Shown in pieces: positions 3,076-48,701 of a stretch of DNA of 48,701 bases; the stretch's first letter is position 1, and each line of letters starts with the position of its first letter. The notes beneath the pieces were generated by a model. The model was not told the origin of the DNA. It made no database searches and saw nothing but the letters and a program-made list of their open reading frames with translations. The DNA comes from Candidatus Blackburnbacteria bacterium. GTDB lineage: Bacteria; Patescibacteriota; Microgenomatia; UBA8517; UBA10165. Location of the stretch: assembly GCA_016183565.1 (NCBI GenBank), contig JACPEJ010000003.1:1-48701 (forward strand). Reading direction: 5' to 3'. The translations under genes were made by a program, and so were the position numbers.

Positions 3076-3663
3076 ATGGCAAACAACGCAAAATTAAATA
3101 TAAAAGTTATTGTCGGCAGTACTCGCGAAGCCCGTTTTAGCGATAAAGCGGCCGCGTGGATTACCCAGGAAATCAGGAAACAAAAAGAGGTTGGGGCTGA
3201 AATACTGGATCTGCGCGATTACGATATGCCGTTTTATAATGAACCGGTAAGTCCGTCATACAAACAGGAACCGTTCAAAAACGAAGCAGTTTCCCGTTTT
3301 ACCAAGAAAATCGGCGAAGGAGATGCTTTTGTCGTTGTTACCCCGGAATATAATCACGGAACATCGGGCGTACTGAAAAATGCAATGGACTGGGTATATC
3401 CAGAATGGAATAATAAACCGGTTGCCTTTGTGAGCTACGGCAGTGTCGGAGGGGCAAGAGCGGTGGAGCAACTCCGCTTGAACGCCATTGAGCTTCAAAT
3501 GGCGCCAATTCGACAAGCTGTTCATATTCCACAACATTGGACTTTATTAGACGAGAAGGGAAATTTGAAAAAGGGCACGCTCGGATCATTTACTGAAAGC
3601 GCCGAAGCCATGCTGACTCAGCTTATTTGGTGGACGAAAGCATTGAAAAACGCTCGAAAATAA
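3076..3663 (+). CDS. NAD(P)H-dependent FMN reductase family oxidoreductase
   Basis: 195 aa. Flavodoxin-like IKVIVGSTREARFS and VVVTPEYNHGTSGVLKNAMDW motifs typical of the family. Confidence 0.85.
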   Translation: MANNAKLNIKVIVGSTREARFSDKAAAWITQEIRKQKEVGAEILDLRDYDMPFYNEPVSPSYKQEPFKNEAVSRFTKKIGEGDAFVVVTPEYNHGTSGVLKNAMDWVYPEWNNKPVAFVSYGSVGGARAVEQLRLNAIELQMAPIRQAVHIPQHWTLLDEKGNLKKGTLGSFTESAEAMLTQLIWWTKALKNARK

Positions 3664-35199: not shown

Positions 35200-35233
35200 A
35201 TATCGGGAAACGTTGTATTCTCCAACGGGTCTC

Positions 35234-35347
35234 ACTCGCGCACAGCGCGAGTCAGCCATAAAGCTATTAGGCTATAAAGCTATGATGTCTTTTCTTCATA
35301 GCTCTATTGCTTCATTGCGACATAGCTAACTTGTGCTATGCACAAGT
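35234..35347 (-). repeat. hairpin-bounded rRNA mini-insertion, copy E1 (core type A)
   Basis: actcgcgc-aca-gcgcgagt at 35234-35252 and acttgtgc-tat-gcacaagt at 35329-35347. The core is rich in ataaagctatt / cttcatagct. Confidence 0.8.
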
Positions 35348-35369
35348 GTTTTGGATTCCTCATCTTGGG

Positions 35370-35404
<35 letters not shown>

Positions 35405-35640
35405 TCATGGGAACGTAGCTACCCAGCGGTGCCATTGACATGACAACTGGTAAACCAGGGGTTCCCCCATGCTGGTCCTCTCGTACTGAGCACAGCTCCC
35501 CTCAAGAATCCTTCGCTTACACCGGATAGAGTCCGAACTGATTCACATCGTTCTGAACCCAGCTCGCGTAATGTTTTAATGGGCGAACAGACCAACCCTT
35601 GGGAGGTACTACCCCCCCAGGATACATTGAGCCGACATCG

Positions 35641-36452
35641 CATTTAAACCTATCCATTTTCATGGTAGCCTGACTATACCTTCACCCACTGAAACAAAAT
35701 GGGTGTCAACGTATTATGAAATGAGGTTTCTCATTTCATCTGTCCCGATGTAACTCGGGACAAGTCGATACGGGGTCAAGTTAATTAGACGATAGATGAT
35801 AGAAAATAGAAAATAGATCTTTGATGATAGAAAATAGACAATGGATTAATAAGTTTTCCAGTTATTCCTTAGGTTGGTAATTTTTCCACCTAAAGCAATA
35901 TACCTTGTAATTAACCCGTTGCAAACATCCTTATTTATAAAACCTAAATCTCTTGCCATGCTTAAATGAACTTCCATTTCATTGCAAGAGCCTAAGGACT
36001 TATCAAGGTGGACCTTAAATTCTTTTTCAAATCTCCTTTTAGCCCACCCTTCTGCAATATTTGCTGGAGGTGATTTAGAGCATCTTCTCAGTTGAGAACC
36101 TAAATCATTTTTCTCATACATTGGAAGTTTTTGACAAAGTTTGTTGACAATAATTGCCAATTCATAACTTTCTTTGTACACTCCCAAATCTTTGAAGCTC
36201 GTTATCATATCTCCATTATCTATCTTCTATCTTCAAATTACTATCTTCTACCCTCTATCATCTACCGTCCACACTAACCGACTTCCCACGGTATTACCCT
36301 GTGTCATTATTTAACTTTGAACCAAATCCAAAGTCAAGTCTGTTTTTGACCTTAAGGGCTCCACCGTTATGAGTTGATATTTCGTTCAAACCACTGGGTA
36401 GTGTTTGAACAACAGCACTCTGACGTTGCCGTCGGAGGACCCCGATATGTTG
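35641..36452 (-). mobile_element. group I intron in 23S after the E. coli U2500 equivalent
   Basis: The exon reads CUACCU|...|CGAUGUCGGCUC. The 5' exon ends in U and the intron ends in G. Core motifs GAAGGUAUAGUC (35672-35683), GACCCCGUAUCGAC (35764-35777) and GGGUAAUACCGUGGGAAGUCGG (36278-36300). Confidence 0.8.
35846..36208 (-). CDS. four-helix-bundle protein (23S rRNA intervening-sequence protein family, TIGR02436-like)
   Basis: 120 aa. FKDLGVYKESYELA, QLRRCSKSPPANIAEGW and GSCNEMEVHLSMA match the family pattern. It lies wholly inside the intron. Confidence 0.88.
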   Translation of the reverse strand: MITSFKDLGVYKESYELAIIVNKLCQKLPMYEKNDLGSQLRRCSKSPPANIAEGWAKRRFEKEFKVHLDKSLGSCNEMEVHLSMARDLGFINKDVCNGLITRYIALGGKITNLRNNWKTY

Positions 36453-36908: not shown

Positions 36909-37006
36909 GTGTAAGTAGGCCGCATCTTCACGGCCACTGCAATTTCACCGAGTAGAGGTTCGAGACAGCTGCCAACTCGTTACGCCTTTCGTGCAGGTCG
37001 GAACTT

Positions 37007-37210
37007 CATGTTTGTTCTCGCGCTTTCGCGGAGCATGGACTCTCTCTTCCCCCGACGTTACGTCGGGAGGTCAGCGTTTGGTCTCTACGGGGTCAACCCT
37101 TCGATTAACTCAGGGCGACTTCCCTCGGGATTACCGTGTCCACCTGTTGGCGGATTTAGGCTTCCCCGATATAGCTAACATGGGCAATTCTAGCTGCACA
37201 CTAGAGCTTT
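37007..37210 (-). mobile_element. compact ORF-less group I intron after the U1951 equivalent
   Basis: 204 nt. The 5' exon ends ...GUCGGGU and the intron ends ...AACAUG. Core motifs GGUAAUCCCGAGGGAAGUCG (37116-37137), GACCCCGUAGAGAC (37081-37094) and GAAGAGAGAGUCC (37038-37049). Confidence 0.7.
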
Positions 37211-37218
37211 ACCCGACA
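37211..37218 (-). other. 8-nt 23S micro-exon UGUCGGGU (helix 71 5' strand)
   Basis: Joining UUCCU + UGUCGGGU + AAGUUCCGACC reproduces the universal UUCCUUGUCGGGUAAGUUCCGACC. No other GUCGG partner for the CCGAC strand exists nearby. Confidence 0.65.
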
Positions 37219-38259
37219 CAATCTGTTGCTTTTTCTGACCCCACTTAAAGTAGGGCGTCTTGATATTTCTATCAAGATCTGCATGTCGCCATGCAGTTCA
37301 GACTATATTATCTCCGAATTTACTTCAGAGCTTAGCGTGTAGTCGTTGAGGCTCCGAATAAGTTTCTCCAATCTCTCCCTCATTTTGGACAATCGGGAAG
37401 GATACTGATTCATAAAAATCTTTGCAACCCTAAGAACTTCTTTCTTACTACCAACTTCCCAATGGAATAAACCATCATCGCTGCGCTTATGAATATAACC
37501 GCAACCGAGAAAGCTTTTCGCCAACTCGATAATCTTGCGATCTTTCATTGCTACAGCAAAGAACGGTTGTTGGTATAAACCAGATTTCTTTAGGCCACAT
37601 GAACCTTCGGCATCCATGATCCCAGATAAGAAAAAGCCAGTTGCATCGCTATTGTGGCGATTTACCGAGCCTTCTATCTCAAAACCATAGAGTTTAAGAT
37701 TCTTAAGACCCTTACGACATTTTTCTATTACTTCAATCTTGTCTTGAACTTTTGAGTACTTACCGATTGACGGTAAGACTTTTCCTAAAAATTCAAGCTT
37801 CTTGATTGCTATATCTCCCGCAAGAACCGGATAATCTCGAAAAAAGTTGAGAACAAATTCAACTTTTCTTCTACCTCTAAACTTGAGGTTATATCCTCCC
37901 TTAATTGGGCTGATGATTCCTTGTTCTGAAGCAATTACCCGATTAACTTCTTCCAGAAGAAATCGGTCTGCGTTGGAAACAGTTAAATCAGGAGTAAAGT
38001 AAAAACCTTTTCCTTTTTTATGAGTAGCCCGAATTATCGAACAACTCAATTCTCCAACACAAAAACCTGTGTAATAGAACTTACTAAACTCATTCGTTGC
38101 CTGCTGATTATCTGCACTTGAAGCATTGTCAGTTGAAGATGTTGGCATTAATTCCAGTATTAACCGAAATTAACCCAAAGTCAACAACTAGCTCAAGATA
38201 CTCAGACGTTCCAGCATATAGCCAAGTTTTCCCAACATATGGTTGTTGGGTCCCCTTAG
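37219..38259 (-). mobile_element. ORF-bearing intron after the U1943 equivalent (probable group I, class unassigned)
   Basis: The 5' exon ends in U, the intron ends in G (..CAGAUUG), and a GGGGA guide can pair with UUCCU. It lacks the core motifs shared by the other four introns. About 190 nt is non-coding. Confidence 0.6.
37303..38148 (-). CDS. double-motif LAGLIDADG homing endonuclease
   Basis: 281 aa. Motifs YTGFCVGELSCS and FFLSGIMDAEGSCG. Confidence 0.85.
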   Translation of the reverse strand: MPTSSTDNASSADNQQATNEFSKFYYTGFCVGELSCSIIRATHKKGKGFYFTPDLTVSNADRFLLEEVNRVIASEQGIISPIKGGYNLKFRGRRKVEFVLNFFRDYPVLAGDIAIKKLEFLGKVLPSIGKYSKVQDKIEVIEKCRKGLKNLKLYGFEIEGSVNRHNSDATGFFLSGIMDAEGSCGLKKSGLYQQPFFAVAMKDRKIIELAKSFLGCGYIHKRSDDGLFHWEVGSKKEVLRVAKIFMNQYPSRLSKMRERLEKLIRSLNDYTLSSEVNSEII

Positions 38260-38464
38260 AGGAACTTCGCTACCGTAGAACAGTTATAGTTACTGCTGCC
38301 GTTTACCGGAGCTTCATTTCTCAGCAACCGAGGCTTGCGCCCCGCCACCGATCCACTTGACTTACCGGCACTGGGCAGGCGTCAGCCCCTATACTTTGCT
38401 TTTCAGCTTTGCAGGGACCTGTGTTTTTGATAAACAGTCGGTTGGCAATCTTTAGCTGCGGCCC

Positions 38465-38580
38465 ACTCGCGCACAGCGCAAAAATTTCTAATTTGAAATT
38501 TAAAATTTGAAATGAATTTTTATTGAGATTTCATTAAAAATTGAAAATTAAAAATTAAAAATTCTTGTGCTATGCACAAG
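38465..38580 (-). repeat. hairpin-bounded rRNA mini-insertion, copy E6 (AT-rich core type B)
   Basis: The low-coordinate hairpin is degenerate (actcgcgcacagcgc). The other is cttgtgc-tat-gcacaag at 38564-38580. The core aatttctaatttgaaatttaaaatttgaaatg... is nearly identical to copy E5. Confidence 0.75.
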
Positions 38581-39134
38581 CGGGCAGGACATCTTGAAAA
38601 ACTTACGTCCAGCTTTTTTGCCGAATTCCTTAAACCTCTTTCTCTCGCTCGCCTTAGTCTTCTCGACCAGCCCACCTGTGTCGGATATCGGTACGGCTTG
38701 CCTTGTGTCTTGCTGCGAACCTTTTCTTGTAAGTTGAAAGCGCTTAGATTGCATCCCTTGCGGAACGCTTTGTATCACTGCTTGGTTAAACATCCTAACG
38801 GATTTTCCAATCAGAACTACTTAACAGCTTACACCCACCATGTTCATGGGTGGGCCTAAGACTTCCAACTCAGTCAGTCCCCAGCTATAACGACTCAAAA
38901 CAAGTAGACGAATATTAACGTCTTGTCCATCCCCTACTCCCCCGATTAAATCGGGGGGCTTAGGTTAGGCACCGACTAACCCGTCGACGACGAACGTAGC
39001 GACGGAAACCTTGGGCATACGGCGGTCCGAATTTTCATCGGACTGTACGTTACTCATACCGGCATTCTCACTACTGTACGCTCCACCCTACCTTCCAGTA
39101 GAGCTTCAATGCATACAGCACGCTCCCCTACCAT

Positions 39135-39286
39135 ACTCGCCCTCCGGGCGAGTCAGCTATAAAGCTATTGAGCTATTAGGCTATAAAAGATTTTCTTCGA
39201 AAATCTCTTCAACTTTCGTATAAAGTAAAAAGCTTCATAGCTTCATTGCGTCATTGCTTCATCGCTAACTTGTCCGAAGGACAAGT
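39135..39286 (-). repeat. hairpin-bounded rRNA mini-insertion, copy E2 (core type A, helix 45 equivalent)
   Basis: actcgccc-tcc-gggcgagt at 39135-39153 and acttgtcc-gaa-ggacaagt at 39268-39286. Confidence 0.8.
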
Positions 39287-39341
39287 ATCTCTAGTTTCGG
39301 CGCTTGGCTTAATCCTCGATAAATCTTCGGCGCTACCATCC

Positions 39342-39463
39342 ACTCGCCCTCCGGGCGAGTCAGCTATAAAGCTATTGAGCTATTAGGCTATAAAAGATTT
39401 TCTTCGAAAATCTCTTCAACTTTCGTATAAAGTAAAAAGCTTCATAGCTTCATTGCGTCATTG
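39342..39463 (-). repeat. truncated copy E3, 122 nt identical to E2
   Basis: 39342-39463 equals 39135-39256 base for base by my reading. It lacks the last 30 nt, including the acttgtcc hairpin. Confidence 0.8.
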
Positions 39464-39497
<34 letters not shown>

Positions 39498-40014
39498 GTG
39501 TCTTTGGACGGCAACTTCCTTTGCAACTTAGCCAAGATCTTAGAGGCCTTAACTGAGAGTCTGGGTTGTTTCCCTTTCGTCACACCAGCTTAGCCCGGCA
39601 TGACTGTTTCCCTTAATTTTCCACAGTTGTATTCGGAGTTTGGTTGAGATATCTTAAGTTACCTCTTGATACCCCATCCAGTGCTCTACCCCAACTGAGT
39701 TTTTTTAAAAGACGGTCCCTATAGACCTTTCGGGGAGAACCAGCTATCTCCAGGTTCGTTTGGCATTTTACCGCTAACCACAAGTCATCCGAGCACATTG
39801 CAACGTACACCGGTTCGGGCCTCCTCGCGGCATTTCTGCCGGATTCACCCTGCTCATAGTTAGATCACCTGGTTTCGGGTCTGCCCCCACGCGCATTTCC
39901 GCCGATTGGCGGATCGGGCTATTCACCCTCGCTTTCACTATGCCTTCACCACGGAGTGGCTTAGACTGCGCATGACGACAACTCGCCGGTTCATTCTTCA
40001 ATAGGCACGGTATC

Positions 40015-40129
40015 ACTCGCCCTCCGGGCGAGTCAGCTATAAAGCTATTAAGCTGTTAGGCTATGAAGTAAAAGGCTTCATAGCTCCATTGCATCATTGC
40101 TTCATCGCTAACTTGTCCGAAGGACAAGC
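40015..40129 (-). repeat. hairpin-bounded rRNA mini-insertion, copy E4 (core type A, helix 25 equivalent)
   Basis: actcgccc-tcc-gggcgagt at 40015-40033 and acttgtcc-gaa-ggacaagc at 40111-40129. Confidence 0.8.
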
Positions 40130-40413
40130 TTTACCGGTTTGTTCGCAAACAGTTTCAGGTTCTATTTCACTGGGCGTCCCGCCCATCTTTTCACCTTTCC
40201 CTCGCGGTACTAGTTCACTATCGGTCACAAGTTGTATTTAGCCTTACCCAGTGGTCTGGGTAGATTCCCACAAGATTTCTCGTGTCCCGTGGTACTCAGG
40301 AACATCCTAGAGTCCCGTTAGATTTTGTATACAAGACTTTCACTTTCTTTGGTCGACAATTCCATGTCATTCTACTATCTAACGAAATCCCACATTGGAG
40401 TCCTACAACCCCC

Positions 40414-40529
40414 ACTCGCGCGCTGCGCGAGAATTTCTAATTTGAAATTTAAAATTTGAAATGAATTTTTATTGAGATTTCATTAAAAATTGAAAATTAA
40501 AAATTTAAAATTCTTGTGCAACGCACAAG
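40414..40529 (-). repeat. hairpin-bounded rRNA mini-insertion, copy E5 (AT-rich core type B)
   Basis: actcgcgc-gct-gcgcgag at 40414-40431 and cttgtgc-aac-gcacaag at 40513-40529. Confidence 0.8.
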
Positions 40530-40573
40530 CAGGTTTGGGCTTTTCCGCTTTCGCTCGCCGCTACTAACGGAAT

Positions 40574-40929: not shown

Positions 40930-41069
40930 TTCAAATCTCTTATCACTTTGTTTAAAATTTCAATTGTTAAAGTGCCCTTCGACTTCGCCAAGTCAGACTT
41001 GGCTTCGCTCAGGGTAAACTGACCCTGCAAAGTATGGCTTGCACTGAGCAAGCGAAGCGTGCCGAAGTG

Positions 41070-41142
41070 TGGACCCGGGCGGGATCGAACCGCCTACCTC
41101 CTCATTGCAAATGAGGTGTTCAACCAACTAAACTTCGGGCCC
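41070..41142 (-). tRNA. tRNA-Ala (UGC)
   Basis: Minus-strand cloverleaf. Acceptor GGGCCCG/CGGGTCC with G3-U70, anticodon loop TTTGCAA, T arm GGCGG-TTCGATC-CCGCC. No CCA is encoded. Confidence 0.9.
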
Positions 41143-41318: not shown

Positions 41319-42023
41319 TCAATGGGAAAGATGAATTCTCCATTTCTGTGGAATTATACAACTCTGCTCGAACATTTTTTGAACGGAACTGACCGCCTCC
41401 GCTTCCCGCCTGCGCCGAGGCTTCGGCGGGCAGGCGCTCCGGCGGAACGCTCGGGCGCGGCGGAATTCTGCTTCTAAAATAACTGGCAATTCTTTCACTC
41501 CATCACTTCCGCTAAAGTGTCCTTTAGCGTGTTCAATCGCCGTTTTCGCGCCAAGCCGTTCCTCAAAAAGTTTTTTGTTTTCTTGCGGCACAACCTCATC
41601 GTCATCGGAAAATACCGCAAAAAACTTTTTGGTATGTTGCTTCACTTTAGCAAACTCAATCGGCGTTTCCAACCACGACTTGGCAATTTCTTTTTCCTCA
41701 TCGGTTTTCAAGTTCATTAAAGTGAACCAACCGGCGACAAAAGTCGCACCTCCAACTTTTTTGTCGGCGGGCAGACTTTCCAAAAAACGGAGAATGGTTT
41801 GGCAACCGATACTGTGTCCGACAAAGTAAGTATTCTTATCAACATCGCCGACAATTTTGGAAAAGTGCGAAACCCACGCTTCAATTTTCGGCTCCTCCGA
41901 TTCCGGCATAGCCGGAACATGAACTTGAAAACCATTTTTCTCAAGCTCTGTTTTTAGCCACGGAAACCAGCCCTCATCAGGGTAGCCGTCCCAGCCGTGA
42001 ATTATGAAAGCTCGTTTAGTCAT
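41319..42023 (-). CDS. alpha/beta hydrolase (YdeN/RBBP9-like serine hydrolase) with an aberrant C-terminal extension
   Basis: The ATG at 42023 gives MTKRAFIIHGWDGYP. Nucleophile elbow GHSIG. The last ~45 codons (EFRRARAFRRSACPPKPRRRRE...) are read through a GC-rich palindromic element. Confidence 0.75.
   Translation of the reverse strand: MTKRAFIIHGWDGYPDEGWFPWLKTELEKNGFQVHVPAMPESEEPKIEAWVSHFSKIVGDVDKNTYFVGHSIGCQTILRFLESLPADKKVGGATFVAGWFTLMNLKTDEEKEIAKSWLETPIEFAKVKQHTKKFFAVFSDDDEVVPQENKKLFEERLGAKTAIEHAKGHFSGSDGVKELPVILEAEFRRARAFRRSACPPKPRRRREAEAVSSVQKMFEQSCIIPQKWRIHLSH
41385..41475. repeat. GC-rich palindromic element inside the hydrolase 3' end
   Basis: gcctgc[gccga-ggct-tcggc]gg-gcaggc hairpin. 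The 20-mer at 41449-41468 is the exact inverted copy of 2516-2535. Confidence 0.6.
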
Positions 42024-42027
42024 AAAG

Positions 42028-42360
42028 TTATGGTTCGTCCACATATTCGAGAAAAAGTTTTCTCTCGAAACCACCTCGTTCTATTTTCTTTTTCTCTTTT
42101 TGTTTTTCAACCTCAACAATCGTCGTGTTGTTGTTTAGTGCGATTGACTCCAACAACTGAAGAACATCTGATAACTCATTCAAAATTTCCTCGTCAGTTT
42201 TTGCTTCCAGTAATTCTTTTGCTTCCTCAACCAGCTTTTCTTTTAAGGCAATTTTGAATTGATCGTCATTCAATTCTGAAACTTTTGGGACAGCATTATT
42301 CTTTTTGATAATCTCTGGAATTCTATCCCTTATTAGCTTGTTATAAGTTTTCCGGTTCAT
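42028..42360 (-). CDS. MazG-like nucleoside triphosphate pyrophosphohydrolase
   Basis: 110 aa. YNKLIRDRIPEII and the KLVEEAKELLEA/ELSDVLQLLE helices are typical of small MazG-type enzymes. Confidence 0.7.
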   Translation of the reverse strand: MNRKTYNKLIRDRIPEIIKKNNAVPKVSELNDDQFKIALKEKLVEEAKELLEAKTDEEILNELSDVLQLLESIALNNNTTIVEVEKQKEKKKIERGGFERKLFLEYVDEP

Positions 42361-42540
42361 GTTATTTCAAAACTTGGTAATGAAGTTGAATTTCGTTATC
42401 AGTATCAGTTATTTTCTTTTGACCCAAAAGTTTCAACGCTTCTTTTGGCGAGTGAGCAATTAGGTGATTTGGTCCCAAAGTTTGATATTGGTGGACTCTC
42501 TACGAACAAATTCGGACTGATTTCAAAATACGAACGTCGT

Positions 42541-42610
42541 AGCTCCGGCCCCGCTTCGCGTGGCCTCCGCTTTTTTGCGCGCGCGATTTTTTGCTCGGCT
42601 GAGGCCGAGC
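42541..42610. repeat. GC-rich element
   Basis: A GC spike between AT-rich genes containing the hairpin ttgctcggc-tga-ggccgagcaa. The 85-aa ORF across it is judged spurious. Confidence 0.45.
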
Positions 42611-42618
42611 AATAAACA

Positions 42619-43365
42619 TCAAATTCTTGAATTCTTAAGTGTCGATAAGATTGTCTCAACAAGAATATTATTTTGTTCTGTTGAGGAATTAATTATATAA
42701 AAATAATCCTTTTGATTTGGAAAAACATAATCCTTGGGATCAATAGCAAGAAAATAATATTTATGAGTCCCAAGACCTCTTGATTTGTATGTAAACCCTG
42801 AGTAACTACCTATAGAAATTGGTTTTGTTGTTTCTAGCACATCTCCAACTTCTTTTGAATTTGCAACTTCCTTTTCAACAACCTGCTCCAAAGTTTGAGT
42901 TGTGGGATACTGGACTCTTTTTATTCTAAACTCAAGTCCTTCTATTTCTTTAATTTTATATTTATCAAGATTTGATTCATCAAACATTATAAAATGTGCA
43001 TAGTTATCACTCGTTTCACCATATGTAATATTTTTAGGGTGTTTTACTGTAAAACCGTCAGCTCGTGATCCTGATTCGATCCAGTCACTTGTATCAATTA
43101 GGTTTTGTTCTTGAGAAAGCGGGGTGGTAGATGGTATTGTAGATGGCAGAACTGTATCATTATTCAATGGCTTTTGTCCGGAAAGATTACTGTTCTGCTT
43201 TCCTAAGAAATAACCACCAACGCCAAAAACTAGTGAGCAAAGAACGGAAACTACAATAATTGCAGTAAGATTAGTTTTTGGCTTATCTGGAACAGTTGGT
43301 TGAGCAACTGGATTTTGGCCGACTGGTTGGGTATTTTGATTACCCACATTAATTTTATTTTCCAT
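42619..43365 (-). CDS. membrane-anchored hypothetical protein
   Basis: ATG at 43365 follows a GGAGA RBS. One TM segment (LTAIIVVSVLCSLVFGVGGYFLG) followed by an ectodomain. Confidence 0.55.
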   Translation of the reverse strand: MENKINVGNQNTQPVGQNPVAQPTVPDKPKTNLTAIIVVSVLCSLVFGVGGYFLGKQNSNLSGQKPLNNDTVLPSTIPSTTPLSQEQNLIDTSDWIESGSRADGFTVKHPKNITYGETSDNYAHFIMFDESNLDKYKIKEIEGLEFRIKRVQYPTTQTLEQVVEKEVANSKEVGDVLETTKPISIGSYSGFTYKSRGLGTHKYYFLAIDPKDYVFPNQKDYFYIINSSTEQNNILVETILSTLKNSRI

Positions 43366-43420
43366 ATTTATCTCCAAGAAAAAGTATATCATTTTCTTTT
43401 AAAAGTTGGTATATTGGAAT

Positions 43421-43504
43421 TGTAACCAACTTAATCGATTGCTTTTTTTGATGGCCGCATTGGACAGCTTGAGCAATCGAGTTGGTTACAACCAGTGCGG
43501 CCAT
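43421..43504 (+). ncRNA. interleaved inverted repeats (two mutually exclusive helices)
   Basis: A 43421-43442 pairs with A' 43473-43490 (18 bp plus a 4-nt bulge). B 43451-43463 pairs with B' 43492-43504 (13 bp, including one G-U valid only on the + strand). The order is A-B-A'-B'. Confidence 0.4.
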
Positions 43505-43594
43505 TTAAGTTTTTAGAACATTAATAATTTTTGCATTTTTCTTTTCCGCCAAGGGCGGTGTCCGAGCCGACTTTTTCGGAGGCCGAAGGCCATC

Positions 43595-43623
43595 TTGACA
43601 ATGTCTTATAATTGAGTCATAAT
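43595..43623 (+). promoter_or_regulatory. sigma70-like promoter of the phd-relE pair
   Basis: TTGACA (43595-43600), 17-nt spacer, CATAAT (43618-43623). The ATG at 43632 is only 8 nt downstream of the -10 element. Confidence 0.45.
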
Positions 43624-43631
43624 TATGATGT

Positions 43632-43910
43632 ATGAATCTACCCATTATTCCAACCATCAAATCGGTAACTGATCTTAGATATCAAACCGCAGATATTATA
43701 AAGCTTTTAGAGCAAAACCAGCCCGTAGTAGTGACAAGAGATAATGACACTATCGCAGTTATACTTTCTCCCACCCAATATCAACAAATTATTCACCTTT
43801 TTGAAGAACTAGAAGAAGAAAAAGCAGTACAAAGATTGGAGAAGGCAATTAAAAAAGGAGGAAAGTTTATTGATTTTGACTTATTTGACAACAAACAACG
43901 TAAAAAGTAA
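43632..43910 (+). CDS. Phd/YefM family antitoxin
   Basis: 92 aa. SVTDLRYQTADIIKLLEQNQPVVVTRDNDTIAVILS is the typical Phd/YefM N-terminus. Confidence 0.8.
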   Translation: MNLPIIPTIKSVTDLRYQTADIIKLLEQNQPVVVTRDNDTIAVILSPTQYQQIIHLFEELEEEKAVQRLEKAIKKGGKFIDFDLFDNKQRKK

Positions 43911-43922
43911 AAGGTTGCCTAA

Positions 43923-44183
43923 ATGTACAAGATCTTCATCGAAAAGAAGGCGGCAAAATTTCTCTCCAAGTTAGACTCAAAAACTTACCGAATAGTCTCA
44001 AATGCCATCAAGAAACTCTCCCACTTTCATGAAACAAAAAATTTAGACATAAAACCTCTTAAGGGAAAATTTGAAAATATGCTAAGACTTAGAGTTGGAT
44101 CAAGAAGGGTTCTTTTCACCGTTAATGAACTGAAAAAAGAAATTAAGATTTGGATTATAGAAAACCGAGGAGATATTTATTGA
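43923..44183 (+). CDS. RelE/ParE family toxin
   Basis: 86 aa. KKAAKFLSKLD and LRLRVGSRRVLFTV..I.IWIIENRGDIY patterns. Confidence 0.8.
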   Translation: MYKIFIEKKAAKFLSKLDSKTYRIVSNAIKKLSHFHETKNLDIKPLKGKFENMLRLRVGSRRVLFTVNELKKEIKIWIIENRGDIY

Positions 44184-44230
44184 AAAATGTGGCGAGCGCC
44201 ATTCCCGACTCGCAGAATTCTCCATTTCTG

Positions 44231-44302
44231 TGGGTGCGCATGGAATCGAACCATGTACTTCTAAATTATCAGTTTAGCGTTCTGCCAGTGAACTACGCAC
44301 CC
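44231..44302 (-). tRNA. tRNA-Ile (GAU)
   Basis: Minus-strand cloverleaf. Acceptor GGGTGCG/CGCACCC, anticodon loop CTGATAA, T arm CATGG-TTCGATT-CCATG. No CCA is encoded. Confidence 0.9.
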
Positions 44303-44700: not shown

Positions 44701-44784
44701 CGTATATACTCCTTAGAAAGGAGGTGATCCATCCGCACCTTCCAGTACGGATACCTTGTTACGACTTAGTCCTCATCGCTGAGT

Positions 44785-45348
44785 TCACCTTAGGACCCAC
44801 TTAATTGCGGGTACTTCGGGTGCCCCCAACTTTGCTGGCTTGACGGATTGCACTTTACTTGAGGTTGTAGTGCGTTCCCACCCGACGAGCGGATTTCCCG
44901 CACCGGGCGAGCCGAAATGTTTTTGAAGCTCGTTATGAAGTGTATTCATTGTGAGCTTTAACTGCCAAACTTTATTTAATTCCTCTTTTGTAAGCTTGCG
45001 TATATCTTGCCGACCACGAACGATCTGAGCAACACGAGCAAACCTTTCAAAAGATTCCCTTTTGACACCTTGTAAGTGGTGTTTTTGGAAAAATGGAACT
45101 ATTGAGCCGTAGATCTCGGCTTGTCGAGTTACCTCATAAACGAAGGTTGTTTTGTGCTTGTCGTTGCCTTGAAATTTTCTATATACATAACCAACTTTAA
45201 AAAATTCAAAAACTTTATCTAAAAGTTCCTTATTATCAAAGCGTTGCGTAATAAAATATCTTAAGACGATTCGACAATCTGGCCTTATTTGAACCAGAAA
45301 ACATCCCTCGCCATCAGTTAACCCAACAATATAGTCTGCAGTTAGCAT
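44785..45348 (-). CDS. single-motif LAGLIDADG homing endonuclease
   Basis: 187 aa. DYIVGLTDGEGCF motif. The last ~20 codons run past the insertion boundary (44846) into the helix 44 exon. Confidence 0.8.
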   Translation of the reverse strand: MLTADYIVGLTDGEGCFLVQIRPDCRIVLRYFITQRFDNKELLDKVFEFFKVGYVYRKFQGNDKHKTTFVYEVTRQAEIYGSIVPFFQKHHLQGVKRESFERFARVAQIVRGRQDIRKLTKEELNKVWQLKLTMNTLHNELQKHFGSPGAGNPLVGWERTTTSSKVQSVKPAKLGAPEVPAIKWVLR

Positions 45349-45735
45349 TCCGTAGATTCCTTCGGTATTGATTCGGGTATATATCCAGCTTATGTGAATA
45401 TCTACCTTCTGTCAATACCTACTATGAATCTGCTGACTTCCTGTAAGGTAATTACCTCCACCCTAACAGGATCTCCGTGGGTCATTATATTCTCTCTTCT
45501 AAACATGAATGACGGATTTTCTTTAGCTGACTTCCTTCCGACCGCCCGGCGAAAGTCGCCAATCCTCTTTTGTGTCATCCCTGTTCTTTGTCTCAGGCCC
45601 TCCAACCAAATTAGTTACCCAATCTGGTCTGCCATTTTTGACTACGTTTGCACAGACGTTATGCAAAGGTAGGACTTCAACCTACTAGAGGATATAACTG
45701 CCACGCGCGTTCTAGTACTCAAGCTGAATACTATA
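44846..45735 (-). mobile_element. unclassified 890-nt insertion in the 16S decoding centre (between C1403/C1404 equivalents)
   Basis: Flanks read ACACCGCC | ... | CGUCAAGCC. With the 1-nt C ambiguity, neither possible boundary gives an exon-U/intron-G pair. The shared group I core motifs are not seen. Confidence 0.65.
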
Positions 45736-46067
45736 GGCGGTGTGTACAAAGAGCGAGAACGTATTCACCGCGGTTTAGCTGACCCGCGATTACTACCAAT
45801 TCCAAGTTCATGCAGGCGAGTTGCAGCCTGCAATCCCAACTGAGAGAAGGTTTGAGGGATTAGCTCCGCCTCGCGGCTTGGCAACCCATTGTCCTTCCCA
45901 TTGTAGTATGTGTGTTGCCCCGGATATAAGGGCCATGCGGACTTGACGTCGTCCCCTCCTTCCTCCCGAGCTAAGCTCGGGCAGTCCCATATGAACAATT
46001 TAACATATGGCAGGGGTTGCGCTCGTTGCGGCACTTAAGCCTACACCCTACGGCACGAGCTGACGAC

Positions 46068-46870
46068 CACGTTTATTTAACTATTACTAGTAGCGTGGAC
46101 TATACCTTCACCCCGACGTTACGTCGGGGGCCAACCGTATGAATGGTACTTTAAAAGTTTCCATTCTCACCCCGCCCTTATGCGGGGATCAGTCTCTACG
46201 GGGCAAAAGTTTGACCGAATATTTTTGCAGCTCAGGTAAAACTTCATCCCAAAATTTTCTTTTAAGATAAAGAACCCAAGTGCCTGCAGAATCGTAGTGA
46301 TACAAGCTAACATTTGTTTTTCCAAACAAACTCACATCTCTTATCGCATCGTCTTGATTTCCGTAGGCTATACGTACTCTCAAACGTGCTCCTTTATCAA
46401 CAGAACCATCTCCATCTATCCTGCCAGCCAAATAAGCTGGTAGAAATTTATCAGGAACAGTAAAGTTTTTCTCCTTAAAAGGTAGAAGAAACCTTACAAA
46501 CGCTCTGTTGTTAACGTAAAGATGATATGCTACTTGTTTTCTTTTTCTCCCAACTGGCTTATAAAGCCTGTATTTTATAATACAGTTTGGCAGGTGTCTT
46601 TTAAGAAAAGACTCGAACCTTCTTATAAGTCGCATATCGGTAGAAGAAAGACCAATAGAACTTGACCACCAATAACCATCTGCAAGCCAAAGACCTAAAA
46701 TATAGAAATCTTCAGCAGTTTTCGGCCACACTTTGCTTCCCACGGTATTACCCTTTGATATTTCATCTTAACCCGAAGGTTAACCGAAAATCAAGTGGGG
46801 CTTCACCGTTTTGGGTTGGTTATTTTTGTCCGACGTTACCATCGGACCGGCCATCATCCCTTGCGGGACT
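46068..46870 (-). mobile_element. group I intron in 16S after the U1060 equivalent
   Basis: Exons read GCAUGGCU | ... | GUCGUCAGCUCGUG. P1 is UGGCU/GGCCG and P10 is GAUGAU/GUCGUC. Core motifs GAAGGUAUAGUCC (46098-46109), GCCCCGUAGAGAC (46192-46204) and GGGUAAUACCGUGGGAAG (46737-46755). The intron ends in G. Confidence 0.8.
46189..46743 (-). CDS. compact double-motif LAGLIDADG homing endonuclease
   Basis: 184 aa with a GTG start. Motifs ILGLWLADGYW and YLAGRIDGDGSV. Both ORF ends overlap conserved intron core motifs. Confidence 0.75.
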   Translation of the reverse strand: MGSKVWPKTAEDFYILGLWLADGYWWSSSIGLSSTDMRLIRRFESFLKRHLPNCIIKYRLYKPVGRKRKQVAYHLYVNNRAFVRFLLPFKEKNFTVPDKFLPAYLAGRIDGDGSVDKGARLRVRIAYGNQDDAIRDVSLFGKTNVSLYHYDSAGTWVLYLKRKFWDEVLPELQKYSVKLLPRRD

Positions 46871-47001
46871 AGCCATGCAACACCTGTCCTGCACCCTCGA
46901 AGGCGACCCCATTTCTGGGGCTTGCAGCAGGATGTCAAACCCGGGTAAGGTTCTTCGGTTCGTATCGAATTAAACCACATGCTCCACTGGTTGTGCGCTC
47001 T

Positions 47002-47050
<49 letters not shown>

Positions 47051-47081
47051 CTCGCTTAACGCGTTAGCTATGGAACCCACT

Positions 47082-47225
47082 ACTCGCGCACAGCACGAGT
47101 CAGCCATAAAACAGCAAAGCTGTCTTCAACTTCGTATAAAGCTATTAGGCTATAAAGCTATGATGTCTTTTCTTCATAGCTCTATTGCTTCATCGCTTCA
47201 TCGCTAACTTGTGCTATGCACAAGT
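47082..47225 (-). repeat. hairpin-bounded rRNA mini-insertion, copy E7 (core type A, h26 region)
   Basis: actcgcgc-aca-gcacgagt at 47082-47100 and acttgtgc-tat-gcacaagt at 47207-47225. Confidence 0.8.
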
Positions 47226-47275
47226 AACAGATCCCTAGCGAGCATAGTTTACGGCTAGGACTACAGGGGTCTCTA

Positions 47276-47739
47276 CAAGTTTGTTGCACAAACTTAAATT
47301 CAAAATTTAAAGTTCAAAATGCAAAATTACATTTTAAAATTAAAGGTTGAAAAAGTTTCGGCTAAGACATTTCTGCTCAGCTCTCCATGTTGCCATGGAG
47401 GTCGGACTATATCTTCATCCCGAGCTAAGCTCGGGAGCCGACGTGTAGTCTCTACGGGGTCAAGTTACTATTGAGGCTAGACAGTAGAAACTAGATGTTA
47501 GAACTTGATGCTAGATGTTTGAGCCTAGTAGGTGCTTTACAAACTTCTAAATCACGAAACGTCTTTTATCATCAAGCATCGACCTTCTAACTTCAAGGTC
47601 GAACTTCTAATTTCCATCGTCTAACCTCAACATAACCGACTTCCCTCGGTATTACCCTTCGACTTTGTTCAGGGCTTCACCGATACAGTTGGATTTTCTC
47701 ACGTAGTGTTACCACTACGGGGGACTAGAGACAAGCTCC
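47276..47739 (-). mobile_element. ORF-less group I intron in 16S after the U788 equivalent
   Basis: Exons read GCGAAAGGGAU | ... | UAGAGACCCCUGUAGUCC. P1 is GGGAU/GUCCC and P10 is GUCUCUA/UAGAGAC. Core motifs GAAGAUAUAGUCC (47404-47416), GACCCCGUAGAGAC (47448-47461) and GGGUAAUACCGAGGGAAGUCGG (47636-47659). Confidence 0.82.
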
Positions 47740-48294
47740 ATCCCTTTCGCTCCCCTAGCTTTCGTTCCTCAGCGTCAGATATTTCCTAGGTGCCCGCCTT
47801 CGCTGTTGGTGTTCCTGTCGATATCAACGGATTTCACCCCTCCACCGACAGTTCCAGCACCCCCGGAAGATCTCTAAGCATGATCGTATCTTGCGACCAA
47901 TCCCGATTAAGTCGAGATCTTTAACACAAGACGCATCACGCCGCCTACGAACTCTTTACGCCCAGTAAATCCGGACAACGCTTGCACCCTCCGCATTACC
48001 GAGGCTTCTGGCACGGAGTTAGCAGGTGCTTATTCTCCCCGACGTGTGTCGGGACAAAAGGAGTTTACAACCCGAAGGCCTTCATCCCCCACGCGGCGTC
48101 GCGGCGTCAGACTTTCGTCCATTGCGCACGATTCCCGGTTGCTGCCACCCGTAGGTGTAAGGACCGTGTCTCAGTTCCTTTCTGGGGGGTCGTGCTCTCA
48201 CACCCCCTACCCGTCATAGCCTTGGTAGGCCGTTACCCTACCAACTAGCTGATAGGCCGCAGGTCGTTCCCTAAGCGCGCCGTTAAGCGCTTTT

Positions 48295-48438
48295 ACTCAC
48301 GCACAGCACGAGTCAGCCATAAAACAGCAAAGCTGTCTTCAACTTCGTATAAAGCTATTAGGCTATAAAGCTATGATGTCTTTTCTTCATAGCTCCATAG
48401 CTTCATTGATACATAGCTAACTTGTGCTATGCACAAGT
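48295..48438 (-). repeat. hairpin-bounded rRNA mini-insertion, copy E8 (core type A)
   Basis: actcacgc-aca-gcacgagt at 48295-48313 and acttgtgc-tat-gcacaagt at 48420-48438. The core is nearly identical to E7. Confidence 0.8.
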
Positions 48439-48520
48439 GGTATGGAGTATTACCCCGTCTTTCGACGAGCTATTCTTCTCCCTAAGGTAAGTTCTCACGC
48501 GTTACTCACCCGTCTGCCAC

Positions 48521-48639
48521 TCTCGTGCGAAGCACGAGAACTACGAACTGAGAACTTAGAACAAAGAATAAAAATAAATTATTCCTTATTGTTCTTAGTT
48601 CTTGGTTCTTTGTTCATAGTGCTTGTGCTCCGCACAAGC
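48521..48639 (-). repeat. hairpin-bounded insertion, copy E9 (core type C, expands h6)
   Basis: tctcgtgc-gaa-gcacgaga at 48521-48539 and gcttgtgc-tcc-gcacaagc at 48621-48639. The core is a long gaacttagaac/gttcttagttc hairpin. Confidence 0.7.
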
Positions 48640-48657
48640 GTTCGACTTGCATGCCTA

Positions 48658-48700
<43 letters not shown>

Positions 48701-48701
48701 A

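Follow-up and report, generated by a model that had tools for sequence, protein, structure and literature searches.

Comparative evidence for two adjacent group I introns around an 8-nt exon in helix 71 of the 23S rRNA gene of a Candidatus Blackburnbacteria bacterium

Layout and boundaries in helix 71

The stretch of DNA analyzed here, 48,701 nucleotides (nt) of Candidatus Blackburnbacteria contig JACPEJ010000003.1 (referred to as the window), carries a ribosomal RNA (rRNA) operon on the minus strand in the order 16S, tRNA-Ile, tRNA-Ala, 23S, and 5S, with open reading frames (ORFs) for LAGLIDADG proteins inside the rRNA genes. The focus of this study was the segment 38259..37007, in which the helix 71 region of the 23S gene is interrupted by two inserts with eight nucleotides between them. 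All exons, introns, helices, and coding regions of this segment lie on the minus strand. Positions are those of the window, rRNA positions follow Escherichia coli, introns are named after the 23S position that precedes them (L1943, L1951), and compared loci carry three-digit handles (L001 to L160).

The upstream 23S exon ends with GGUAGCGAAGUUCCU (38260..38274); its last base is U1943, and its UCCU (38263..38260) is the exon strand of the first P1 helix. On the minus strand, the border reads ...GGUAGCGAAGUUCC(38261)U(38260), followed by C(38259)UAAGGGGAC of intron 1 (L1943; 37219..38259; 1,041 nt), which ends with ...ACAGAUUG (terminal G, 37219). The subsequent micro-exon UGUCGGGU (37211..37218; 8 nt) corresponds to E. 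coli 23S 1944-1951, the 5' strand of helix 71, and its GGGU (37214..37211) is the exon strand of the second P1. Intron 2 (L1951; 37007..37210; 204 nt; ORF-less) begins with AAAGCUCUAG and ends with ...AACAAACAUG (terminal G, 37007). The next exon, AAGUUCCGACCUGCACGAA (36988..37006), resumes at A1952 (A(37006)AGUUCCGACCUGCACGAA) and contains the 3' strand of helix 71.

Numbering was based on the authentic E. coli 23S gene (L001:650-3554), aligned with the window after both inserts had been cut out; when the unspliced gene was aligned by MAFFT, the introns were put into wrong gaps, and the alignment was clean only without the inserts. The window minus both inserts aligned gap-free with E. coli 1880-2020, so that exon 1 ends at U1943, the octamer covers 1944-1951, and the next exon begins at A1952. 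This alignment, together with the comparative support described below, confirmed to the base the original prediction of two introns with an 8-nt exon between them, including their lengths (1,041 and 204 nt), the restoration of the universal UUCCU-UGUCGGGU-AAGUUCCGACC by the octamer, and the rule that the exon ends in U and the intron in G (U1943 with G37219; U1951 with G37007). The predicted spliced exon sequence is GAAGUUCCU-UGUCGGGU-AAGUUCCGACC. The octamer, TGTCGGGT, was found as a single copy in the window when both strands were counted; the chance expectation was 0.86 for the whole window, and approximately 0.01 for a 1,253-nt stretch of one strand. In intron-less or single-intron relatives, the micro-exon bases were continuous with both exons.

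Structures of the two introns and the encoded endonuclease

The upstream intron had been described as lacking the core shared by the other introns, and this was not borne out: RNAalifold analysis of 26 homologues, in which the ORF loop was replaced by GAAA, gave a complete P1-P9 core with compensatory changes. Intron 1 lacks only the sequence signature GGUAAUNCCGNGGGAAGUC, which is common to the L1951 and L2500 introns of the window and one 16S intron. This element was what had been taken for the shared core; intron 1 represents a different group I lineage, not a core-less one. The ORF-less 316-nt intron of L007/L019, which has the same core sequences and matched the Rfam model RF00028 with 60.7 bits (threshold, 50), served as the template for placing the intron 1 helices in the window.

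P1 of intron 1 pairs UCCU and the first intron base, C, with GGGGA (internal guide sequence (IGS); 38255..38251). The U1943·G pair was found in 26/26 homologues and the P1 pairs were conserved in 24-26 of them, the pair beside U·G being C-G in 12, A-U in 12, and U-A in one. P2 (38250..38231) is followed by P3 (CUUGGC/GCUAAG; 38226..38221 with 37335..37330), in which U-A alternates with C-G and G-C with C-G, and by P4 (GCUGG/UCAGC; 38215..38211 with 38106..38103), in which U-A and G-C were found at 13:13. Compensatory changes were also present in P5 and in P6 (AGGC...GCCU plus CGA/UCG; 38102..38099 with 37352..37349), whose loop, L6, holds the ORF. P7 (GACUA/UAGUC; approximately 37343..37339 with 37305..37301) forms a pseudoknot with P3 and was invariant except for one compensatory change in L026. 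P8 (37330..37312) and P9 (37296..37279; 7 bp closing a GCGA loop) both covaried, and were followed by P9.1 (37276..37259) and P9.2 (37255..37239). The omega-G is G37219, and UG stood directly before the UGUC exon in every homologue with a readable 3' junction. By this covariation, intron 1 qualifies as a group I ribozyme with all core elements present.

Intron 2, when scanned alone (261-nt stretch), matched RF00028 over the full model (36.7 bits; E-value, 4e-8), while it was not reported by Rfam scans at the whole-window or 5-kb scale. The Infernal comparison proposed in the original prediction was thus positive for intron 2 at a sub-threshold score, and gave only a weak match for intron 1 (25.4 bits; 37279..37444), limited to the 3' half with R/S-like elements. 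Intron 2 contains a P1 extension hairpin (37205..37189); the IGS UUGCCC (37187..37182), which forms P1 with GGGU and the intron bases AA; P3 (37179..37174 with 37075..37070); P4 (37169..37164 with 37129..37124); P5 (37161..37133); P6 (37124..37089); P7 (G(A)GAC, 37085..37081, with GUCC, 37040..37037); P8 (37069..37049); and P9 (37033..37017). In an alignment with 17 short L1951 introns of other bacteria, the P1 columns were identical in 18/18 sequences, and P3, P4, and P9 covaried. The minimum free energy fold of the micro-exon plus intron 2 gave P1, P3, P4, P5, P6, P8, and P9 (z = -4.46). The nearest relatives by blastn were introns of the candidate phyla radiation (CPR): L125 (72% over 172 nt), followed by L122 and L086; L094 also matched. 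Intron 2 was the shortest L1951 member seen, without P2 and peripheral extensions, and has GACCA/GAGUC in P7 where its nearest relatives keep GACUA/UAGUC. The proposal that the downstream intron carries the shared core at the known L1951 site agreed with the presence of GGUAAUNCCGNGGGAAGUC and with the alignment, according to which intron 2 is a new member of the known bacterial L1951 group I family.

The gene inside intron 1 (37303..38148) encodes a LAGLIDADG homing endonuclease of 281 amino acids and of the double-motif (monomeric) type. The ORF starts in the P5 extension, lies mostly in L6, and reads through P4', P6', P7, P3', and P8, so that core RNA codes for the peptides NQQ and LNDYT; the UAG stop is within the J8/7-P7' element. 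The motifs GFCVGELSCS and GFFLSGIMDAEGSC were both kept in 12 homologues, in which the acidic motif ends are GFCVGE(33)LS and GIMDAE(181)GS and G28, E33, D179, E181, and G182 were invariant. Pfam LAGLIDADG_1 (PF00961) matched residues 174-255 (E-value, 3e-12; 47.7 bits), and the N-terminal half was weakly LAGLIDADG-like. Among PDB entries, I-OnuI variants matched over residues 22-230 (E-values of about 1e-5 to 1e-4), and I-SmaMI only over residues ~165-258. The retention of both motifs and the PDB similarity over both halves are in accordance with the double-motif protein originally proposed. Similar to the I-OnuI/I-SmaMI group, the enzyme has two LAGLIDADG motifs per chain of about 280-300 amino acids; however, the similarity is remote and the first motif is degenerate (GFCVGELS). 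In a collection of 5.8 billion proteins, 119 homologues, down to 42% identity, all came from metagenomes or CPR metagenome-assembled genomes (MAGs), and the double-motif family seems to be confined to CPR. The protein is predicted to be an active endonuclease, for which the presumed intron-less target is GGTAGCGAAGTTCCT followed by TGTCGGGTAAGTTCC, and the L1951-occupied form is …TGTCGGGTAAAGCTC. To our knowledge, no characterized LAGLIDADG enzyme has 23S 1943/1944 as its target.

Occurrence in other genomes and alternative readings

When GTDB species representatives were scanned twice with the intron 1 protein, 28 distinct loci were obtained, and the 3' junction of the upstream intron was readable in 26 of them, including the window. 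All 12 + 28 loci found with the endonuclease were CPR MAGs (Daviesbacteria, Levybacteria, Parcubacteria, Paceibacterota, Taylorbacteria, and others), and the window accordingly belongs to a CPR/Patescibacteria host with a Microgenomates-like genome. A green-algal chloroplast origin of the rRNA operon, suspected initially, was rejected on this basis and because protein genes separate tRNA-Ile from tRNA-Ala. Several "binchicken" third-party annotation (TPA) assemblies with CPR-type 23S (L022/L008, L018/L005, L019/L007, and others) are titled "uncultured Gammaproteobacteria bacterium", which is probably a taxonomy label error. The L1943 intron occurred alone in 17/26 loci, where ...(A/U)UG was followed by UGUC[G/U]GG[U/C][A/G]AGUUC[C/A]GAC; helix 71 was intact in all 17 and covaried (GUCGG/CCGAC versus GUCUG/CAGAC). 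One of these single-intron loci (L008/L022) has an endonuclease 88% identical to that of the window, and the L1943 intron was also alone in a public assembly (L160). The contig of another endonuclease relative (P0003 in L159; 86% identity) stops before the 3' junction, and is silent on the timing of L1951 gain. In L003/L017 (1636-1660), the L1943 intron breaks after P7' (…GUCUGAACCUUACA) and is directly followed by CCCGCACGAAAGG, the intron 3' end and rRNA 1944-~1961 being missing; the near-identical L004 is intact, and the deletion probably stems from a collapsed assembly or marks a dead gene copy.

L1951 junctions were sampled using G+AAGUUCCGAC[C/G][C/U]GCACGAA, in which the terminal G replaces U1951. 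At least 120 loci (L039-L158) were obtained, and all 120 sampled matches were intron 3' junctions. The L1951 intron was alone in 102 of them, with ...UUCCUUGUCGGGU on the 5' side and an intron length of 227-1,196 nt, in hosts from Actinomycetota, Dormibacterota, Gemmatimonadota, Gammaproteobacteria, Chloroflexota, and CPR. Lengths clustered at ~260-400 nt (ORF-less) and ~690-780 nt (ORF-bearing). L1951 introns in non-CPR MAGs (Thermoleophilia/Solirubrobacterales, Acidimicrobiia, and others) were far commoner than the handful of cultured cases in a 2007 compilation.

Since each intron occurs alone, the boundaries of both are fixed independently of each other. This bears on the alternative that 38259..37007 is one composite intron of 1,253 nt, removed whole, with the octamer as a chance sequence and a mature rRNA without 1944-1951. 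Use of the first 5' splice site together with the last terminal G is a formal possibility, and tandem "zombie" twintrons spliced as a unit have been proposed in fungal mitochondria (PMC8393795). However, each half has its own full core, guide, and terminal G, and the second guide covaries with the exon. In other genomes, each half occurs singly at the site that it occupies here, and these 17/26 and 102/120 single-intron cases contradict the expectation that the two inserts are never found apart. Moreover, the octamer is exactly the universal 1944-1951, for which the chance expectation is ~0.01. The 5' strand of helix 71, which composite splicing would remove, is a universally conserved element of rRNA. 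A single composite intron is, therefore, extremely improbable. The arrangement also differs from a twintron in that a genuine exon lies between the modules and each is found alone elsewhere.

A second intron directly after the 8-nt UGUC[G/U]GG[U/C] was found in nine of the 26 readable L1943 loci: the window, L014, L019 (=L007), L026 (=L012), L027, L029, L031, L033, and L034. The 8-nt exon, regarded as unusual in the original prediction, is so for bacteria generally, but not within the CPR clade. The nine second introns (204-602 nt) all have a terminal G and are of at least three unrelated types: the L1951 family (window), introns with an L1943-like core (L014 and L019), and one similar to the L2500 intron of the window (L026). 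L029 was assigned to the L026 type solely on the shared intron opening sequence; the introns in L027, L034, and L031/L033, compared by their opening sequences, differ from the three types. Their guides were read by eye (UUGCCC, CUGCCCG, UUGCCA, GCCAG, and GCCCGA) because an automatic G·U-tolerant search was spurious in five of the nine loci. The guide tracked the micro-exon: GGGU:GCCC versus UGGU:GCCA in L027/L034. As P1 has no role other than in splicing, this covariation speaks for genuine use of the micro-exon as a 5' exon.

The nearest endonuclease relatives of the dual loci were mostly single-intron (only L031/L033 share both introns), from which L1951 introns appear to have been gained or lost independently several times. 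On the same grounds, inheritance of the two introns as a unit, or a composite mobile element, was not supported. In L014 (~3407-3414) and L019 (3405-3412; L007, 4905-4912), the micro-exon is UGUCGGGC, and the C1951 variant was also found in L004 and L020 with no 1951 intron. The 5' splice pair of the second intron would be C-G in L014 (guide GCCCGA) and C·A in L019 (guide CCCGAC after A), versus the canonical U·G.

Upstream introns of the L1917, L1923, and L1931 types were common at L1943 loci, giving exons of 26, 20, and 12 nt, respectively, and three introns were located within 35 nt in four loci (L026, L029, L027, and L034). An L1931-type intron ending just before A1932 (L026, L029, L037, L038, L005/L018, L006, L013/L028, L024, and L025) leaves a 12-nt micro-exon, 1932-1943. 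In L026, L029, L037, and L038, the base before AGCG (upstream of AGCGAAAU(U/A)CCU) is A or U, not G, which points to the absence of a terminal G or to a displaced boundary. A Coxiella paper, going by its title, reportedly describes one element with the terminal G missing.

The boundaries, the independence of the two introns, their group I architecture, and the recurrence of the layout are established at the level of sequence comparison. We conclude that two neighboring homing sites were very probably invaded, and that two independent group I introns flank a genuine 8-nt rRNA exon. The arrangement would have arisen from independent gain of the two introns, and not from a composite element. Several points weigh against this conclusion. 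The score of intron 2 (36.7 bits) is below the Rfam gathering threshold of 50; its P7 consists of 4 bp plus a bulged A, with two distal pairs lost according to the alignment, and intron 2 could be a weakened ribozyme. An L1931 intron reportedly stays unspliced in the mature 23S rRNA of Simkania, according to a title cited in PMC11270868; the contig is of the metagenome type, and both single-intron alleles exist in nature; and splicing of both introns is here a prediction from sequence.

Most of these points would fit genuine group I introns by descent, one or both of which are no longer spliced, with the insert retained or cut by RNase to give a fragmented rRNA. The minimal size of intron 2 is in line with this, as are RNase III-processed intervening sequences (IVS), known from PMC11270868, and the many short non-intron insertions in the same 23S gene. 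However, both introns have an intact set of core helices, U·G splice pair, terminal G, and G-binding part of P7, and the endonuclease ORF is intact with acidic residues conserved in both motifs. Helix 71 is at the subunit interface, where a 1.2-kb insert or a break would hardly be tolerated. Loss of splicing is, therefore, unlikely. Alternatively, L1943-only and L1951-only strain variants may have been merged into an assembly chimera, and the assembly-type deletion of L003/L017 is at the same spot. Such variants would have just 8 nt in common between the introns, much less than the k-mer of any assembler. The same layout is present in nine assemblies made independently, in different studies and from different lineages; we regard a chimera as very unlikely.

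Predicted splicing, relation to known systems, and further insertions

With two independent introns around a genuine exon, a splicing scheme may be proposed from the pairings. The guide GGGGA of intron 1 would pair with the exon UCCU and its own first base, the guide UUGCCC of intron 2 would pair with the micro-exon GGGU and its own first two bases, and two separate guanosine-initiated reactions would link the octamer to exon 1 and to exon 2. The intron 1 guide pairs with exon 1 only, and its L1 loop (UAA) has no bases to spare for P10 with the micro-exon; intron 2 requires just GGGU of the micro-exon, and at best forms a weak P10 with exon 2 (UU/AA plus two more pairs). When transesterification was worked through on paper, the correct product was obtained with intron 1 first, intron 2 first, or interleaved steps, the 5' piece being held by pairing to the relevant guide in each order. 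The idea that the 8-nt exon constrains the splicing order was, therefore, unsupported. Two cores docked at once on a linker of 8 nt would probably be sterically awkward, and the reactions in vivo would most likely be sequential. Since helix 71 would be lost if the first 5' site were used with the second terminal G, accuracy must rest on each core choosing its own terminal G.

Up to three group I introns are packed within 35 nt, leaving micro-exons of 12 and 8 nt, or 26 and 8 nt. A more speculative and rather doubtful extension is that H69-H71 (1917-1951) is a packed homing hot spot, in which packing may need ordered or mutually dependent folding and splicing, and ORF-less L1951 introns may spread by co-conversion. 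If so, the double-strand break made by the L1943 endonuclease 8 bp away would spread ORF-less L1951 introns, resulting in a de facto composite mobile element.

Insertions in CPR rRNA genes were reportedly first noticed by Brown and colleagues in 2015. A CPR survey (Tsurumaki et al. 2024, J Bacteriol, PMC11270868) describes insertions in 82% of CPR 23S genes, with 45% of these insertions classed as group I introns, many LAGLIDADG_1 ORFs, and also 23S_rRNA_IVP ORFs; 23S hot spots are given as 1917, 1931, 1952, 2593, 2604, and 2657, with positions stated as approximate. The window belongs to the same clade and phenomenon, and differs from this description in that its enzyme is double-motif, whereas CPR endonucleases are predominantly single-domain there. 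The main text and one supplement do not separate L1943 from L1951, mention micro-exons, or describe exact splice sites, and that supplement has no entries for 1943, 1944, 1951, or 1952; both introns presumably fall under the survey's "1952". The site name "L1943" was absent from the literature searched.

A related layout is described in 23S of Coxiella burnetii, where the group I introns Cbu.L1917 and Cbu.L1951 are located around a 34-bp exon (Raghavan et al. 2007, as cited in PMC11270868 and PMC1995217). According to these citing papers, the Coxiella L1951 intron bears an endonuclease ORF (720 nt, 157 amino acids); in the window, on the other hand, the exon is 8 nt, the partner is L1943 instead of L1917, and the ORF is in the partner, with L1951 being ORF-less. 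Synechococcus sp. C9 has LAGLIDADG group I introns at 23S L1917, L1931, and L2593 (Haugen et al. 2007, PMC1995217). Their ORFs, similar to that of intron 1, reach from a loop at the periphery across the core elements P7, P3, and P8 (PMC1995217; ORF-core overlap for cyanobacterial L1917); however, the endonucleases are single-motif, the sites are different, and the shortest exon (L1917/L1931) is 14 nt. In fungal mitochondria (Hypomyces cox3 and Ophiostoma ips), group I introns lie side by side with zero to few exon nt between them, and a 1-nt "mini-exon" separates two group II introns in Ophiostoma rnl (PMC8393795, PMC12308204). These tandems are organellar, mostly in protein genes, and in some cases proposed to be spliced as a single unit, in contrast to the independent mobile units in helix 71 of a bacterial rRNA. 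The L1943 intron and its double-motif endonuclease are of a known kind, but their site and family are not explicitly described in the texts compared here. The packing around 8-nt and 12-nt micro-exons is a more extreme variant of a known arrangement, and no new mechanism is involved.

The present comparison provides base-exact splice sites for CPR rRNA insertions that the survey placed only approximately, and sets a previously unnamed 23S site, L1943, apart from the classical L1951. Exons of 8 and 12 nt between self-splicing introns appear to be a recurrent and tolerated state of an essential rRNA gene. Practical consequences are that rRNA gene callers misplace boundaries (the Rfam large subunit (LSU) match ends about 1 kb early in the window), and that alignment-based insertion catalogues will merge neighboring introns. 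The locus may be a natural test case for how tight the packing of two group I ribozymes can become before accurate splicing is lost, and for whether an ORF-less intron is able to hitch-hike on the endonuclease of its neighbor.

A third 23S intron (812 nt; 35641..36452, minus strand) was found after U2500: …CUACCU is followed by the intron, CAACAU…UUUAAAUG, and then by CGAUGUCGGC. Its core includes the S-like GGUAUAGUC and GGUAAUACCGUGGGAAGUC, and its ORF (35846..36208, minus strand) encodes a 120-amino-acid 23S_rRNA_IVP protein (PF05635) and no endonuclease. Because of this intron, the Rfam LSU match stops incorrectly at 36342; positions 2501-2783 of E. coli aligned with 35640..35359. The 16S gene (44718..48701, minus strand) also runs past its Rfam end (46812), with E. 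coli ~1337-1403 at 45803..45736 and ~1492-1541 at 44767..44718. Its 3' third is split by two large inserts with ORFs at 46189..46743 and 44785..45348, one being LAGLIDADG_3 and the other (~1400) LAGLIDADG_1; group II-like introns at 16S position ~1400 were reported in the CPR survey (PMC11270868).

Apart from the introns, families of short repeated insertions were found in 23S (near E. coli 275, 546, 1094, 1181, 1718-1728, and the 3' end), located at 35233-35346, 39134-39285, 39341-39492, and 40014-40128, and at 38462-38584 and 40411-40533. In one family, an element of ~75-130 nt is present four times. In addition, a 122-nt stretch is perfectly duplicated at a distance of 207 nt, and a pair of 123-nt copies (93% identical) gave spurious plant-miRNA Rfam matches. 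These repeats have the appearance of a small element, mobile or IVS-like, that multiplies inside a single rRNA gene. Protein ORFs (41319..44183), which are unusual for an rRNA operon spacer, are located between tRNA-Ile (44230-44302) and tRNA-Ala (41069-41142): one of 251 amino acids is hydrolase-like by eye, one of 257 amino acids has a hydrophobic stretch, and the pair at 43632..43910 and 43923..44183 is toxin-antitoxin-like by size and arrangement alone.

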